Notes: generated by a model from the sequence alone, not told the origin. Shown: positions 16,389-57,177, numbered from the stretch's first letter. The stretch is DNA of 64,000 nt from a virus (IMGVR_UViG_3300010409_000003); one strand, 5' to 3'. Program-made: numbers and translations.

Positions 16389-17000
16389 ATGCAAATATTA
16401 AATAGATACACAAATGAAGTTATTATAGAAAGTTTAGAAGTTAAGACTATTAAAGAATTAGTAGAATTAGCTGTTAAAGAAGACGCAAACTTAAGAGACG
16501 CAAACTTAAGAGATGCAGACTTAAGAGATGCAGACTTAAGAGGTGCAAACTTAAGAGGTGCAAACTTAGTAAGAGCAAACTTAGTAAGAGCAAACTTAGT
16601 AAGAGCAAACTTAGAAGATGCAAACTTAGTAAGAGCAAACTTAGAAGATGCAAACTTACCTAATTTTTTAATAACCCCTGAAACAGGATCTTTTCAAGCG
16701 TACAAGAAATTAAGACATAATATAATAGTTAAGATTTTAATACCAGATGATGCTAAGAGAACTAATAGCTTAATAGGTCGTAAATGTAGGACTAATGAGT
16801 TCACTATTACAGAAGTTATGCAGAACCCTGCTAACATTAGTTTCAGTGAACACAAACCTTTACAATCTACACATTATGCATCAGAAGGATACTATCTAGG
16901 GGGTACTTTCAAAGAGCCTGCGTACGATGATGATATCCGTTTAGAGTGTACTAAAGGTTTGCATTTCTTTATGACATTAAAAGAAGCCCAAGATTGGTAA
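16389..17000 (+). CDS. pentapeptide-repeat protein (N-terminal A(N/D)LR(D/G/V) repeat array, about 18 repeats, plus a C-terminal globular domain)
   Basis: Reads [58 protein letters not shown], the hallmark of the Qnr/MfpA-type right-handed quadrilateral beta-helix. Confidence 0.7.
16483..16665 (+). repeat. tandem 15-bp DNA repeats (gcaaacttaagagat-like) encoding the pentapeptide array
   Basis: About 12 head-to-tail copies with minor variation. Confidence 0.7.
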
Positions 17001-29525: not shown

Positions 29526-29682
29526 AAAATAAAACCCTCCTTAATTAATAATAACGTTATGTTACCTTAGTCGAAGAGGGTTGTCAAATGTTTATTTAGA
29601 TTATTAACAATAAACTTAAAAGGACAAACAGAAGTTTGCTTCTTAGTCCTGAATTATAAATCTTTACTCTTAATCTCTTCCT

Positions 29683-29898
29683 TTGTTATCATCTAATTCC
29701 ACAAATATAAATAAGGAAATTAAAAATATGTCAGATAATGTTATACCTAAGTGTCCAAACACATCCTGTAGTTCCACTAAATTTAAGGTCGAGTTAAATA
29801 AAAATCTAGGTGATGTAAATGATGACATCTTTCAGTTTGTATACTGTAGTTCTTGTGGTACTACGGTAGGAGTTCTTCCGTATTCTCCCGTAGAATAG
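29683..29898 (+). CDS. hypothetical Zn-ribbon protein (opposite-strand island)
   Basis: 71 aa. CPNTSC...CSSCG. SD TAAGGAAATTAAAAATATG. Confidence 0.45.
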   Translation: MLSSNSTNINKEIKNMSDNVIPKCPNTSCSSTKFKVELNKNLGDVNDDIFQFVYCSSCGTTVGVLPYSPVE

Positions 29899-30046
29899 AA
29901 TCTTTTAAAAATTCTTTAATATCTATCGAGGTTTTTGCTATATCAAATCCATTATTTTCTTTGTGGAAGTTAATAGCATCTACCTCATTTTCAAATATTA
30001 CAGTTGGACTACTAAAAGCTTTTCCATGTTTACATATTAAGTACAT
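29861..30046 (-). CDS. hypothetical protein
   Basis: 61 aa. Minus-strand SD GAAGGAAAATATAAAATG. Preferred over the low-complexity plus ORF 29853..30074. Confidence 0.35.
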   Translation of the reverse strand: MYLICKHGKAFSSPTVIFENEVDAINFHKENNGFDIAKTSIDIKEFLKDSILRENTEELLP

Positions 30047-30100
30047 TTTATATTTTCCTTCTATTAGTTTTTAATTAATCTTGTTACAAACAATTTATAA

Positions 30101-30195
30101 CAAGGAGTTTAAGTAGGACTAAAAACAGTTGGTTAATTAGTAATCCTACTAGGTTTGTGTTAAGTTTTTAGCCTCTTAACTAGGCGTTAAGCTAA
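30101..30195 (+). repeat. about 90-bp direct repeat, copy 1 (copy 2 at 31091..31170)
   Basis: caag.agtttaagtagga..aaaacagttgg ... cctcttaactaggcgtta is shared by both copies. Confidence 0.6.
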
Positions 30196-30210
30196 TACTC
30201 TATTTTCTAT

Positions 30211-30243
30211 ACTTATAACTACTTATAACTACTTATAATAGTT
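30211..30243 (+). repeat. short tandem repeat (ACTTATA)n-like
   Basis: tataactacttataactacttataat. Confidence 0.5.
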
Positions 30244-30376
30244 ATTCTAAATCTATGTAGCTACCTAAATTAGCTACATTTCATTCAGCCACCAAGGATA
30301 AGGAGGGCAAGCACTCAATATACTTCTGACTATACACCGCAGTAATAACGGTGGTAAAAACTGCTCATCATAAGGA

Positions 30377-30532
30377 AACTTATCTATGAGTATTGATCTA
30401 TTAGTAAATGTCAGCTTACAGTTTACATTTAACCTAGATTCAATTGCTCAGATTATCTCTGGGATGACTTCTGAAGATTTCAAAAATATCTGCTTTGGTA
30501 TTGCTGCTATCATAAAGTTATCAAAAAGAAAA
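30377..30532 (+). CDS. hypothetical small hydrophobic protein (51 aa)
   Basis: Manual find: MSIDLLVNVSLQFTFNLDSIAQIISGMTSEDFKNICFGIAAIIKLSKRKSA. A terminator hairpin follows. Confidence 0.3.
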
Positions 30533-30555
30533 TCTGCTTAAGCAGTTAAAACCCT

Positions 30556-30580
30556 AGCCCTCATAAATAGGGCTTCTTCG
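30556..30580 (+). terminator. putative hairpin terminator
   Basis: AGCCCTcataaatAGGGCT followed by TCTTCG. The T-tract is weak. Confidence 0.35.
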
Positions 30581-30727
30581 TACGTAGCTATGCGTTAAAT
30601 AGCCTTAAAATAAATATAAAATTAGCAGCGTCTTATCCTTATTTGAGTTAAGTTTGGCGCTCGTAATTCACCTCCTATAATTTTTATGTTAATGTTTACC
30701 TTTATTAATTAAAACAAGGAATGTTGT

Positions 30728-30946
30728 ATGTCTAGTGAAATTAAATACCCAGAAACTATAATTAATCTTATTAACGTCCACCTAAGAAATCATAGTGATT
30801 TTGAAGATGGTATGAAAATTGATTCTGTTAAAAAGATTAATAATGGTTTCTTTATTAAAGGTAATCTTAACTACAGCCCAACGAATCTGACACGTGATAA
30901 AATTGAGGCTGTTTACTCTGCAACGGTAAAAGATTTTCAACCTTAA
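30728..30946 (+). CDS. hypothetical protein
   Basis: 72-aa ORF. A competing minus-strand ORF of about 55 aa with a good SD at 31027 overlaps it. Confidence 0.35.
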   Translation: MSSEIKYPETIINLINVHLRNHSDFEDGMKIDSVKKINNGFFIKGNLNYSPTNLTRDKIEAVYSATVKDFQP

Positions 30947-31090
30947 GTTGCTGTACTAATTTATCTGGTAGTTTCAATTGTAGTACCCCACCTTCTGTTT
31001 CTGCTAGGTAATAATAAGTTTCCATAATTCTTTTCTCCTATTTTAATTTAGTATTATTGTTGCTAATCTTTGTACTTAAATTAGCTTAAC

Positions 31091-31170
31091 AAGTAGTTAA
31101 AGTAGGAAATTAACAGTTGGCTACAAAGAGATGTAGCTACTTATTAATTCCTCTTAACTAGGCGTTATCA
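31091..31170 (+). repeat. about 90-bp direct repeat, copy 2
   Basis: caagtagttaaagtaggaaattaacagttggc ... cctcttaactaggcgttatc. Confidence 0.6.
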
Positions 31171-31205
31171 TGTTACATATCTAATTTAATAAGTCAAATG
31201 TTTAT

Positions 31206-31523
31206 TTAATGTACTTCCAAATTACTACTCAACATCACACTTTTTAAGTCTTCTTCTTTATTTTCATAGCTAGCTAAAGTAGTTATATGTAGTAGTATGC
31301 CTATATCTTCATAACCCTCTGTATCAGATATAATTTCTGGAATAAAGTATACACCCCATATACCAAATACATTTAATTCCTCTAAGTTGTCTGATAAAAC
31401 GTTTATCAACTCTTGTTCAGCCTCTTCTAAACTTAATGCTTGTTTTAGTTCAGGGTTATTAGAGTTATTAATTGCTACAGCTTTTTGTAGATGGCCTTCA
31501 TTGTAAAATAATGTTATGTTCAT
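31206..31523 (-). CDS. hypothetical acidic protein
   Basis: 105-aa ORF. Confidence 0.45.
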   Translation of the reverse strand: MNITLFYNEGHLQKAVAINNSNNPELKQALSLEEAEQELINVLSDNLEELNVFGIWGVYFIPEIISDTEGYEDIGILLHITTLASYENKEEDLKSVMLSSNLEVH

Positions 31524-54843: not shown

Positions 54844-57177
54844 ATGTCAGGATTTTCAATAGCAGACTTCTTTGCTCAGTTAAGTATAAAAGCTGATACT
54901 AAAGAAGTTAAGAAAATAGAAGACTCATTGAATAAGATTAATAAATCTTTGAAGATGATAGGAGTTACTAGTGTAGCTCAAGCTAAGAAAGTAGATACTG
55001 TTTTTAAAGGGGAAGCCTTACGTAGACAACACTTACAAGTGAAAGGTCTACATGATGAACTAGAAAAAATGGGTAGCTCTTTAGTTGGCTTTAAGAACAG
55101 ACTAGTTGGTATCGATAAGCAATCTGAATTCGTTAAGATTAAGAATGACATTAAAGAAGCTAAACTAGAAGCTCAACGGTTTAAGAATGAACTTAAACTA
55201 AAGCATAACACTAATAGCATACTAGGTAAAGATAACATCTTTAAGAAGCCGGATGCTTTTAATGGTGCTAATGATAAAGGTAATAATGCTACTAGGATGT
55301 TCCAAGGAGGCGATGACTTCTGGGAAAGATCTGATAAAGGTAGACGTTTACTACATGACCTCAGTGAAGACCAAGTTGACCAATTAAGAGCATTAGCTGC
55401 CGAACAAGTTAAGATGAAGAAGTCGGTAACTGACGCTAATTTAGCTTTAAATACACAAGCTAAGAAGTTTAGGAAAATCAACGATACTATCCCTAAAGTT
55501 AATGCACAAATAACCTCATTAACTAGAGCACAGAATAGGCTAAAAGAATCAGCTAGGCAACTTGCATTATCAATGGTAGGTGCTTTCGCGGTATTCGAAG
55601 GTGTTAAGAGTATCAACAGAGTTGGTCAAGACTTTGAAGGTATGGAAGCTGCAATGTTGGCTTCTTCAGGTAGTTCTAAGTTAGCAGCTAAAGACTTAGC
55701 TTTTGTAGATGAACAAGCTGTACGATTAGGTTTAGACCTACGAGAGACCACAGATGCTTACTCTAAGTTGCAATTTGCAGCTAAAGGTAAAATGAGTAAA
55801 GGACAAACTAAAGAATTATTTACAGGTTTTAGTGAGTTTGCTACAGCCTTGAAAGTTAGTCCAGAACAACAGAAATCAGGGTTAAGAGCCTTGCAACAAA
55901 TGCTCAATAAAACTACGGTTATGAGCGAAGAATTAAAACAACAACTCGCTTAATGTTGGGCGCTTAGGGTAGGAAACTCCCTTAGAAGAATCTATTTAAT
56001 TGCTGGGACAACTTGTTAAGCTTAGTATACAATACTACATAGTGATATAGTAGCGACCTGTAAAAATTACTAGGATAGAGTTAATCAGCCTCCAATCTCC
56101 TTTAGAGGAGCAGGATCAACGACTAGAGGGCAACCTCGTACACTACAAGCTATTGGTAGTGGAAACAATAGACACCTAAACAAGTGATGTTGTAGGTGAT
56201 GATATAGTCTATTCTTACATGAGAATGTAAGCAGTTCATAAGGTTACTACCTTTGAGAACGAGTAACTTAGTAGCGTAAGTTATTGAATGCTAAGGAACA
56301 AGTACCCGGAAGTATACAAATATTCGCCAACGCTTTAAATGTTTCTGAAAAAGAATTATTTAAAATGATGGAACAAGGTACAATAGTATCCTCAGAGGTA
56401 CTACCTAAAGTAGCTAAAGAATTTGCCAAAGCCGCTAGAAGCGGTGGTGCATTAGCGGAAGCTTTGAATACAGTTAGGGTACAACAAGGTAGATTTCTAA
56501 CAGATACACAGAAAGCACAGAATACTATATTCACTAATGGTTTTGGAGAGGGGCTAGCTTCTGCTTACAAAACATTAAGTCAAGTATTGAAAGACTTAGA
56601 ACCAGTGTTGAAAGGTATAGGTCAAGGTTTTGGATTCTTATTCAGAACTTTAGCCGCAGGTATTAATATGATAACTGCACCTCTAAGATCTATAAAATTA
56701 CTTACAGACTTACTAATAGACTTAGATGAAGTGTCTAATACTTTCGCAGAGAATACCGTACCTAGAATGGTAGCCGCAGGTGCTTTATTGTTAACTGCTT
56801 GGGGGAGAGTACTAGCTAAGTTTTTAGCAGTAAAAGCAGTACTAGAGGAATTAGTAGCTCTTAGTTCTAAGAATATAGTAGGCCAAGTAGAACGTGATAT
56901 AGGAAGGGACATAGGTTTTGACTTAGGTGTAGGTGAAAGCACTAGGAGTGGTGATAACCCTTCTCTCAATAAAGAAGCCACTAGCTTTGATAATTACCTT
57001 CAATTTTATAACAGCGAAGATAGGTTTAGTGCTATGGATTGGTTAAAGGATAATGTACTAAATAGTATGGGTTCGGAGATAGTAATAAATCAACAACCTA
57101 CTATAGATGAATACGGCAGTGTCCATATTGAGAATACTGTACAACGTTCTATAGTCAATGGTCAAGCTCAGAGGTAA
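54844..57177 (+). CDS. tape measure protein, two exons (54844..55953 and about 56275..57177) separated by a putative group I intron
   Basis: Both ORFs are in the same reading frame. The first is Lys/Gln/Ala-rich helical. The second begins (L)NAKEQ...VSEKELFKMMEQGTIVSSEVLPKVAKEFAKAA, typical of a tape-measure interior. Confidence 0.6.
55954..56274 (+). ncRNA. putative ORF-less group I self-splicing intron in the tape-measure gene
   Basis: It starts UAAUGUUGGGCG immediately after an exon-terminal U (compare the T4 td intron, which starts UAAUUGAGGCC). The IGS GGCG can pair with exon CGCU. R-like UCAACGACUAGAGGG is at 56119. S-like GAUAUAGUCUAU is at 56204. It ends in G before an in-frame continuation. 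The 3' boundary is 56274 or 56280. Confidence 0.5.

Follow-up and report, generated by a model that had tools for sequence, protein, structure and literature searches.

Genes and repeats at the locus

The window analysed here is a 64000-nucleotide stretch of viral DNA (IMGVR_UViG_3300010409_000003), and the object of study was an island of small genes at positions 30101-31170. In the original prediction, this island lay between direct repeats of about 90 bp and was oriented opposite to the surrounding leftward genes. The window encoded a myovirus-like phage with a large terminase, a Mu-type portal, a major capsid protein, a sheath-like protein, a tape measure protein and baseplate J. Genes for a primase-helicase, a PIF1 helicase, an RNA ligase, a Dam methylase, a lysozyme and an SPFH protein were also present. 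No GenBank phage matched the region at the nucleotide level, and the nearest major capsid protein, from an Alteromonas phage, was 26% identical.

Both repeats were found where predicted, on the plus strand, with limits slightly wider than first placed (30095-30192 and 31084-31170). They shared an 18-mer, CCTCTTAACTAGGCGTTA (30172-30189 and 31150-31167), which had exactly two copies in the 64 kb against a chance expectation of 0.03; no further copy was found in the window when up to three mismatches were tolerated. Pairwise alignment revealed a second common block, TAACAAGnAGTTnAAGTAGGA..AACAGTTGG; the middles of the repeats diverged in length and sequence, and identity over the whole repeat was 58%. 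The short tandem repeat, the inverted repeat and the two small plus-strand open reading frames (ORFs) described between the copies were all present (Table 1), and ORFs lay on both strands of the neighbouring segment 29683-30074, as had been noted. A plus-strand hairpin also followed the first of these ORFs; the terminator called by the scan at 31118-31139 was the variable tip of the second repeat.

The two repeats are very probably integron attC sites (attC1 and attC2), which together with a decayed third site (attC0) would delimit two cassettes, A and B, in a cluster of attC sites lacking integron integrases (CALIN) within the leftward gene block of this tailed phage.

Comparison of the repeats with integron attC sites

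Each repeat could be folded into one long imperfect hairpin, with an outer stem of 4-5 bp (TAAC/GTTA), a 3-nt internal loop and a second stem whose bulged bases lay on the 5' (R''/L'') arm. Pairing of the inner stem was kept despite sequence change (CTAAAAAC/GTTTTTAG in copy 1; AATTAA/TTAATT plus GGCTACA/TGTAGCT in copy 2), and the tips varied in length and sequence among sites. In an alignment of 16 sites, compensatory changes were seen at 13 of the 23 predicted base pairs; the fold z-scores of attC2 were -3.8 and -4.6. The AAC and GTT triplets of the outer boxes were intact in attC1 and attC2, with the degenerate positions fitting partly. The design found was that of attC sites, which are imperfect palindromes of about 57-141 bp in which an unpaired central spacer separates the R-box stem from an L-box stem bearing extra-helical bases, and which end in a variable structure. 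The sites of the window measured 98, 87 and 57 bp.

A pattern taken from the repeat (AACAGTT, gap, CCTCTTAAYTARGCG) matched seven genomes, all of Gammaproteobacteria and mostly marine, including Shewanella, Pseudoalteromonas, Colwellia, Alteromonadaceae, Psychrobacter and others. The full element was present in six of the seven, the Methylococcales match having no conserved ends. Several bacterial matches formed same-strand arrays with a spacing of 450-1100 bp and typical ends (yTAACAAG...GGCGTTAG). The bacterial array L024 began beside a divergent integron-integrase gene (TIGR02249, 414.9 bits; cutoff 265) and is therefore a complete integron; in its second attC, the 18-mer was identical to the phage copies. 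Since attC1 was closer to a bacterial attC (69% identity) than to attC2 (58%), the two repeats are members of one family and not products of a duplication. In IMG/VR, the block-A pattern matched 23 contigs, and arrays of this attC family were present in six short ones among them; a metagenome scan with an attC1-specific 24-mer gave no useful match.

To avoid circularity, a covariance model was trained on 14 bacterial sites only, including those of the integrase-linked array. With this model, attC1 was detected at 30096-30192 (55.6 bits, E 1.3e-12) and attC2 at 31085-31170 (53.2 bits, E 5.7e-12). The third match, attC0, began at 29603 and reached 19.5 bits (E 0.01), and 17.2 bits (E 0.11) with the other covariance model. 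It lay 437 bp upstream of attC1 on the same strand, a typical cassette spacing. Its boxes were TATTAAC and ATTATAA, an A replacing the crossover G in R'.

Several candidate readings of the repeats were dropped after the bacterial attC matches emerged. These were a conserved 5' leader or promoter of the leftward transcripts, an RNase III processing site, a miniature inverted-repeat transposable element (MITE) and a nut/boxA-like or put-like antitermination RNA; a likeness of CCTCTTAAC to boxA was unsupported.

Cassette boundaries and occurrence of the cassettes in other arrays

The integron integrase cuts the R' box between G and TT. An arrayed cassette begins with TTRRRY, and in the circular form this start pairs with the R'' of the cassette's own attC. 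In the window, cassette A started with TTATAA (29654), the reverse complement of the attC1 R'' (TTATAAC), and cassette B with TTAAGC (30187), the reverse complement of the attC2 R'' (GCTTAAC). The same boundary rule was obeyed in L001, L026, L028 and L029 and in bacterial arrays. Over 21 phage and bacterial cassettes, R'' and cassette start matched at 64 of 84 variable positions, compared with 35.9 +/- 3.9 after shuffling, and none of 10,000 shuffles reached the observed value. The count is an underestimate, as L001 and L026 were mis-extracted; inspected by eye, both showed a perfect match (GTTAGGT vs ACCTAAC). Because the first six bases of a cassette complement its own R'', the boundaries bear the mark of an integrase cutting at G|TT. 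One extra candidate attC between the ORFs of cassette B (30583-30665) scored only 9-11 bits and broke this rule; cassette B was therefore taken as a single two-ORF cassette.

The cassettes were also found in other arrays. Window positions 30280-31168 matched 569-1451 of L026, which bears an unrelated cassette array, with 88% nucleotide identity, and the match stopped exactly at the GTTA of attC2, whose orthologue lay at L026 1368-1453. Beyond GTTA, L026 continued with two plus-strand ORFs; after the first of them came an attC that differed and was GC-rich (31.7 bits). This next cassette likewise obeyed the boundary rule, and the other L026 cassettes past the breakpoint carried different attC sites. 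Upstream, the similarity between L026 and L001 set in exactly at GTTAGGTTAA. Past the third ORF of L026, a palindrome of about 25 nt (CCTAAC...GTTAG) was observed at 3361-3390, which may be a truncated attC.

For cassette A, the 5' 70 nt and the 3' 146 nt matched L028 and L029 at 82-91%. The similarity started at 29654 and ended at 30189, both breakpoints being at G|TT, and orthologues of attC1 were located at L028 5201-5297 and L029 4136-4232. The neighbours of the cassette differed in L028 and L029 and the interior ORFs were unrelated among these phages; the cassette ends were conserved and the cargo replaced. Occurrence in another array or position, a sign of mobility, was observed for cassette B in L026 and for the ends of cassette A in L028 and L029.

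These results changed the extent and the nature of the unit first proposed. The idea of a cassette gained horizontally and bounded by recombination sites was borne out; that of repeats duplicated by the insertion was not, as the repeats were two separate attC sites, one per cassette. The unit was also larger than claimed, since the adjoining mixed-strand segment formed another cassette and brought in the decayed attC0 as third site.

attC arrays in related phages

Relatives of the phage were found through a 105-aa gene (gene105, 31206-31523, minus strand) and the Dam methylase gene; protein-pattern scans for relatives of gene105 in viral contigs and in metagenome contigs gave nothing useful. 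L028 and L032 each carried five attC sites between the lysozyme gene and the gene105 homologue, and L029 carried four between the lysozyme-side genes and that homologue. Three sites lay upstream of the gene105 homologue in L030 and L031, where these contigs end. In L001, two attC sites bracketed an island of about 670 bp upstream of the gene105 homologue, these copies having other inner stems, and a third lay elsewhere. L002 had no attC sites. In all loci that bore attC sites, their strand was opposite to the phage genes, and the window array sat on the other side of gene105 than in the relatives. The attC-bearing related phages came from at least five other samples and had the sites in the same genomic neighbourhood. 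The comparison with relatives named in the original prediction as a check found the island present, absent or placed differently among them.

Gene content of the cassettes

The features of the array and its edges are listed in Table 1.

Table 1. Positions of the attC sites, cassettes and further features in the window
Feature	Position	Strand	Remarks
Promoter-like site of phage backbone, TTGACA-17-TAACAT	29559..29587	-	Other array edge; region conserved in L029, L028 and L002
attC0, short decayed attC	29603..29659	+	Third-best match of both covariance models; aligns with short attC L028 4234-4290
Cassette A, 533 bp	29654..30186	+	From TT of attC0 R' to G of attC1 R'
ORF of 56 aa, cassette A	29728..29898	+	Usual cassette orientation; CxxxxC...CxxC pattern; zinc-ribbon Pfam matches sub-threshold only
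ORF of 61 aa, cassette A	29861..30046	-	Phage direction; converges on and overlaps 56-aa ORF; Shine-Dalgarno-like AGAAGGA before ATG
attC1 (first repeat)	30095..30192	+	R'' TTATAAC, R' GTTAAGC; covariance model, hairpin fold
Cassette B, 978 bp (island of the original prediction)	30187..31164	+	Boundary rule; match to L026
10-bp tandem repeat TACTTATAAC x2.9	30210..30238	.	In the variable 5' portion of cassette B; not present in L026 or L001
9-bp hairpin ATGTAGCTA/TAGCTACAT (inverted repeat)	30255..30279	+	Hairpins in the same place, bases changed, in L001 (GTAGTTA/TAACTAC) and L026
Non-coding leader before 51-aa ORF, cassette B	30283..30385	+	About 100 of 103 bases identical to L026
ORF of 51 aa, cassette B	30386..30541	+	Kept in L026 at 674-829
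Hairpin AGCCCT-N7-AGGGCT, then TCTTC, after 51-aa ORF	30556..30574	+	L026: same place, other sequence (GCTTCA/TGAAGC)
Sigma-70-like promoter TTGGCG-16-TATAAT, before 72-aa ORF	30654..30681	+	10 of 12 consensus positions; both hexamers kept in L026
ORF of 72 aa, cassette B	30728..30946	+	Weak sub-threshold DUF2498 match
ORF of 52 aa	30867..31025	-	Phage direction; AGGAG ribosome-binding site; L026 counterpart 48 aa
attC2 (second repeat)	31084..31170	+	R'' GCTTAAC, R' GTTATCA; covariance model, fold z-scores
Phage promoter-like site TTGACT-16-TAACAT, abutting attC2	31170..31197	-	Promoter scan

The five ORFs of the island gave nothing above threshold against Pfam, PADLOC and NCBIfam, the weak DUF2498 and zinc-ribbon hints being the only signals. 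The tRNA scan of the island gave no useful match, and no Rfam family matched it. Among 5.8 billion proteins, the 72-aa protein had two matches only, itself and the L026 copy (82%). Its ORF differed from that of L026 by 7/6/14 substitutions at the three codon positions, the third being favoured. The 52-aa ORF showed no such bias (7/8/4), and from these substitutions its coding status is doubtful. The 103-nt leader of cassette B was about 97% identical to L026, compared with 82-88% for the ORFs. No Rfam match was found for this leader and its fold was not significant; it may be a regulatory element.

In each cassette, a pair of small ORFs converged and overlapped at the 3' ends (29728-30046 and 30728-31025), as was also seen in L028 (5340-5648) and L029 (4275-4542). 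In each pair, the phage-direction member was preceded by a good ribosome-binding site, which lay shortly after an attC. We infer that the cargo is expressed. The term moron, used in the original prediction, is at most loosely apt; cassette B does have its own sigma-70-like promoter and a hairpin.

Promoter-like sites at the edges of the array

A 16-mer, TAAATAAACATTTGAC, occurred in identical form at both array edges on the minus strand (29583-29598 and 31193-31208). It was followed by unrelated spacers of 17 or 16 nt and then by a shared -10 hexamer, TAACAT. The left site belonged to the conserved phage backbone; the right-hand copy of the 16-mer started with the stop codon of gene105. Leftward transcripts from the right-hand promoter-like site would have their start within R' and would include the bottom strand of the array.

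Integrase and predicted recombination

A phmmer search with the L024 integrase against the six-frame ORFs of at least 50 aa in the window found no homologue and no tyrosine recombinase, and Pfam analysis of the 20 largest window ORFs found no recombinase. Three plus-strand attC sites within 1.6 kb and no IntI homologue in the 64-kb window characterise the array as a CALIN. It was not a complete integron, as the window held no tyrosine recombinase and the array was flanked by phage genes and promoter-like sites. Since no integrase was found in the window, we infer that an IntI of the host did or does the recombination. The presumed source of this enzyme, and likewise of the cassettes, is an integron-bearing host among the marine Gammaproteobacteria (Alteromonadales-like).

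Site-specific recombination between attC sites, carried out by an integron integrase at G|TT, is the mechanism to be expected, and not homologous recombination between repeats. The bottom strand of the attC sites corresponds to the minus strand of the window. When single-stranded, it would fold into a hairpin with the R box, the unpaired spacer, the bulged L box and the variable tip; IntI would bind this hairpin and cut G|TT of the R' box. Recombination of two attC sites would free a circular cassette, with a single hybrid attC remaining, and insertion would proceed by recombination of an attC with another attC or with a secondary GTT site. Recombination of attC1 with attC2 would release cassette B as a circle of 978 bp, with the predicted junction ...CTAGGCG|TTAAGCTAAT; in the predicted deletion product, attC1 would be joined to the flank of attC2 (...CTAGGCG|TTATCATG). 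Judged by the A in place of its crossover G, attC0 is probably inactive, and cassette A could therefore leave only along with a functional upstream partner.

Assessment of alternative explanations

Short stem-loop repeats known as PeSLs bracket small genes in a hyperplastic region of T4-type phages, and their excision as circles has been proposed. PeSLs have an early promoter and recombine by homology. The repeats studied here might similarly be phage regulatory modules of promoter plus stem-loop that shuffle small genes by homologous recombination, with no part for an integrase. Small genes do form a hyperplastic block in this region, the array is abutted by sigma-70-like sites with the 16-mer repeated at both edges, and homologous exchange could yield conserved cassette ends with differing cargo. 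However, the promoter-like sites fall outside the repeats, which number only two or three in 64 kb, so that neither a promoter within the repeat nor the many copies of the PeSL type were found. The repeats moreover match bacterial attC sites, one of them in an integrase-linked array, with breakpoints at G|TT that conform to the R'/R'' complementarity rule. An origin of PeSL type is therefore very unlikely. It is likewise highly improbable that the hairpins serve mainly as RNA elements of the leftward phage transcripts (processing, stabilising or terminator-like), the likeness to attC being secondary. Transcripts from the promoter-like site at 31197-31170 would begin inside attC2 and transcribe the bottom-strand hairpins, a ribosome-binding site and a phage-direction ORF follow 25-70 nt downstream of each attC, and the RNA folds were significant in three of four phage copies tested (attC2, L001_R1 and L001_R2), attC1 being so on the minus strand only. 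Yet this leaves the G|TT boundaries and the identity with bacterial integron attC sites unexplained; no Rfam family matched, and the stems had no U-tract except at the attC2 tip hairpin on the plus strand. Nor did the full hairpins resemble intrinsic terminators, being AT-rich and bulged with no U-tract on either strand; the attC2 tip hairpin fitted loosely. A function as RNA element could also exist in addition to the attC identity, and would then be no real competitor to it.

Repeated attC sites can mislead assemblers, and the Logan assembly of SRR5035895 broke inside cassette B (about 30235-30264), as might be expected if bacterial integron DNA had been joined artificially to a phage contig. 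Nevertheless, this independent assembly reproduced both junctions between array and phage, which are thus present in two assemblies and argue that the island is no chimera; attC arrays also lie in the same neighbourhood of the related phages from other samples. The probability of a chimera is practically negligible.

Several observations weigh against the identification of the array as a mobile attC cluster. The attC1 R'' (TTATAAC) and the attC2 R' (GTTATCA) deviate from the strict RYYYAAC/GTTRRRY, and attC0 scores weakly, with no crossover G. In related phages, most ORFs between attC sites have the orientation opposite to that usual in cassettes. A promoter-like motif occurs in two copies, one at each flank of the array, which a simple insertion by integrase does not predict, and L026 may be bacterial or viral. 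No integrase was found within the 64-kb window, about 27 kb of the source contig lying outside the search. No recombination was seen, and the databases contained neither an excised circle nor a deletion variant of the phage; when backbone and cassette proteins were used to look for population variants that lack a cassette, only the same sample was returned.

Other features of the window and of related contigs

The six short IMG/VR contigs, classed as viral there (L037, L040, L046, L047, L050 and L054), carried arrays of one to five attC sites of the same family (33-102 bits). In L001, the third attC (5345-5440, minus strand, 39-46 bits) directly preceded the gene of a C-5 cytosine DNA methylase (5468-6313); methyltransferases are frequent in the published phage attC clusters. 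A 95-aa ORF of L001 (1176-1463, plus strand) read through an entire attC, the three substitutions in the conserved 18-mer of this attC copy abolishing stop codons.

In the window, the sole Rfam match at the gathering threshold was a group I intron (RF00028, 77.7 bits) at 55942-56231 on the plus strand. It split the tape-measure gene, and the ORFs 54844-55953 and 56284-57177 corresponded to consecutive parts of Pfam TMP_3 (positions 2-115 and 116-167). The large terminase ORF (42692-45088, plus strand, 798 aa) contained LAGLIDADG_3 at aa 202-256, before Terminase_6N, which points to an intein or to insertion of a homing endonuclease. In the rightward block of small genes, the ORF at 16389-17000 (plus strand) encoded a pentapeptide-repeat protein that has a DUF5758 domain.

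Comparison with known systems and significance

Qi et al. (2023) screened 10,705 phage genomes and reported 17 integrase-less attC clusters; virulent phages that infect marine bacteria were among the carriers. In their experiments, five of six tested phage attC sites recombined with attI1 through IntI1 (PMC9892861). The present array resembles these phage CALINs in having at least two attC sites and small ORFs with no known function in a phage genome, with no integrase close by, and also in its probable host, a marine gammaproteobacterium. Some of the published arrays also have several or mixed-orientation ORFs between attC sites. The present lineage differs from the phages of PMC9892861 in having no nucleotide kinship to any GenBank phage. 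It also shows gain, loss and re-ordering among relatives at G|TT, with one cassette common to a separate array. The published sites were tested experimentally, whereas those described here are known from sequence alone. The finding adds to the known phage CALINs comparative evidence of cassette turnover within one phage lineage.

Sedentary chromosomal integrons of marine Gammaproteobacteria (Shewanella, Pseudoalteromonas, Colwellia, Alteromonadaceae; L024) shared the attC family of the phage (TAACAAG...AACAGTTGG...CCTCTTAACTAGGCGTTA). Identity reached 69%, the 18-mer was identical, and their hairpin design and cassette boundary rule were those of the phage array. In contrast to them, no intI, attI or common promoter was found for the phage array, which comprises 2-5 cassettes only in this lineage. 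The phage attC tips were shorter and AT-richer, the array ran against phage transcription, and many ORFs were inverted relative to attC.

A preprint (bioRxiv 10.1101/2022.09.11.507474) reports that the integrase can insert cassettes outside att sites, and such insertion at a minimal GTT-containing site is a possible route of entry into the phage. No such site was identified here, however: the left edge was a decayed attC, and the right edge was GTTATCA within a promoter-like motif. The elements of the window differ from PeSLs in being attC sites with breakpoints of the integrase type.

It is conceivable, though on balance rather unlikely, that the phage lineage keeps an integrase-less array as a standing platform for gene exchange in a hyperplastic region, using the host IntI to swap accessory genes with host integrons and other phages. 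The fixed orientation against transcription, the converging ORF pairs, the conserved ends with replaced cargo and the transcribed attC hairpins may reflect adaptation to phage life and not accidental capture.

Integrons are viewed as bacterial gene-capture systems, and integrase-less cassette arrays in phages are rare. The gain, loss and re-ordering of cassettes at the integrase cut site within one lineage is a turnover that single genomes cannot show. The attC type hints at the host of this uncultured phage, pointing to marine Alteromonadales-like bacteria. Recent studies report that chromosomal integron cassettes encode many anti-phage systems. The small cargo genes are candidate genes for traits that phage and host exchange, possibly in defence or counter-defence, and the array supports a view of phages as both users and vehicles of integron cassettes.

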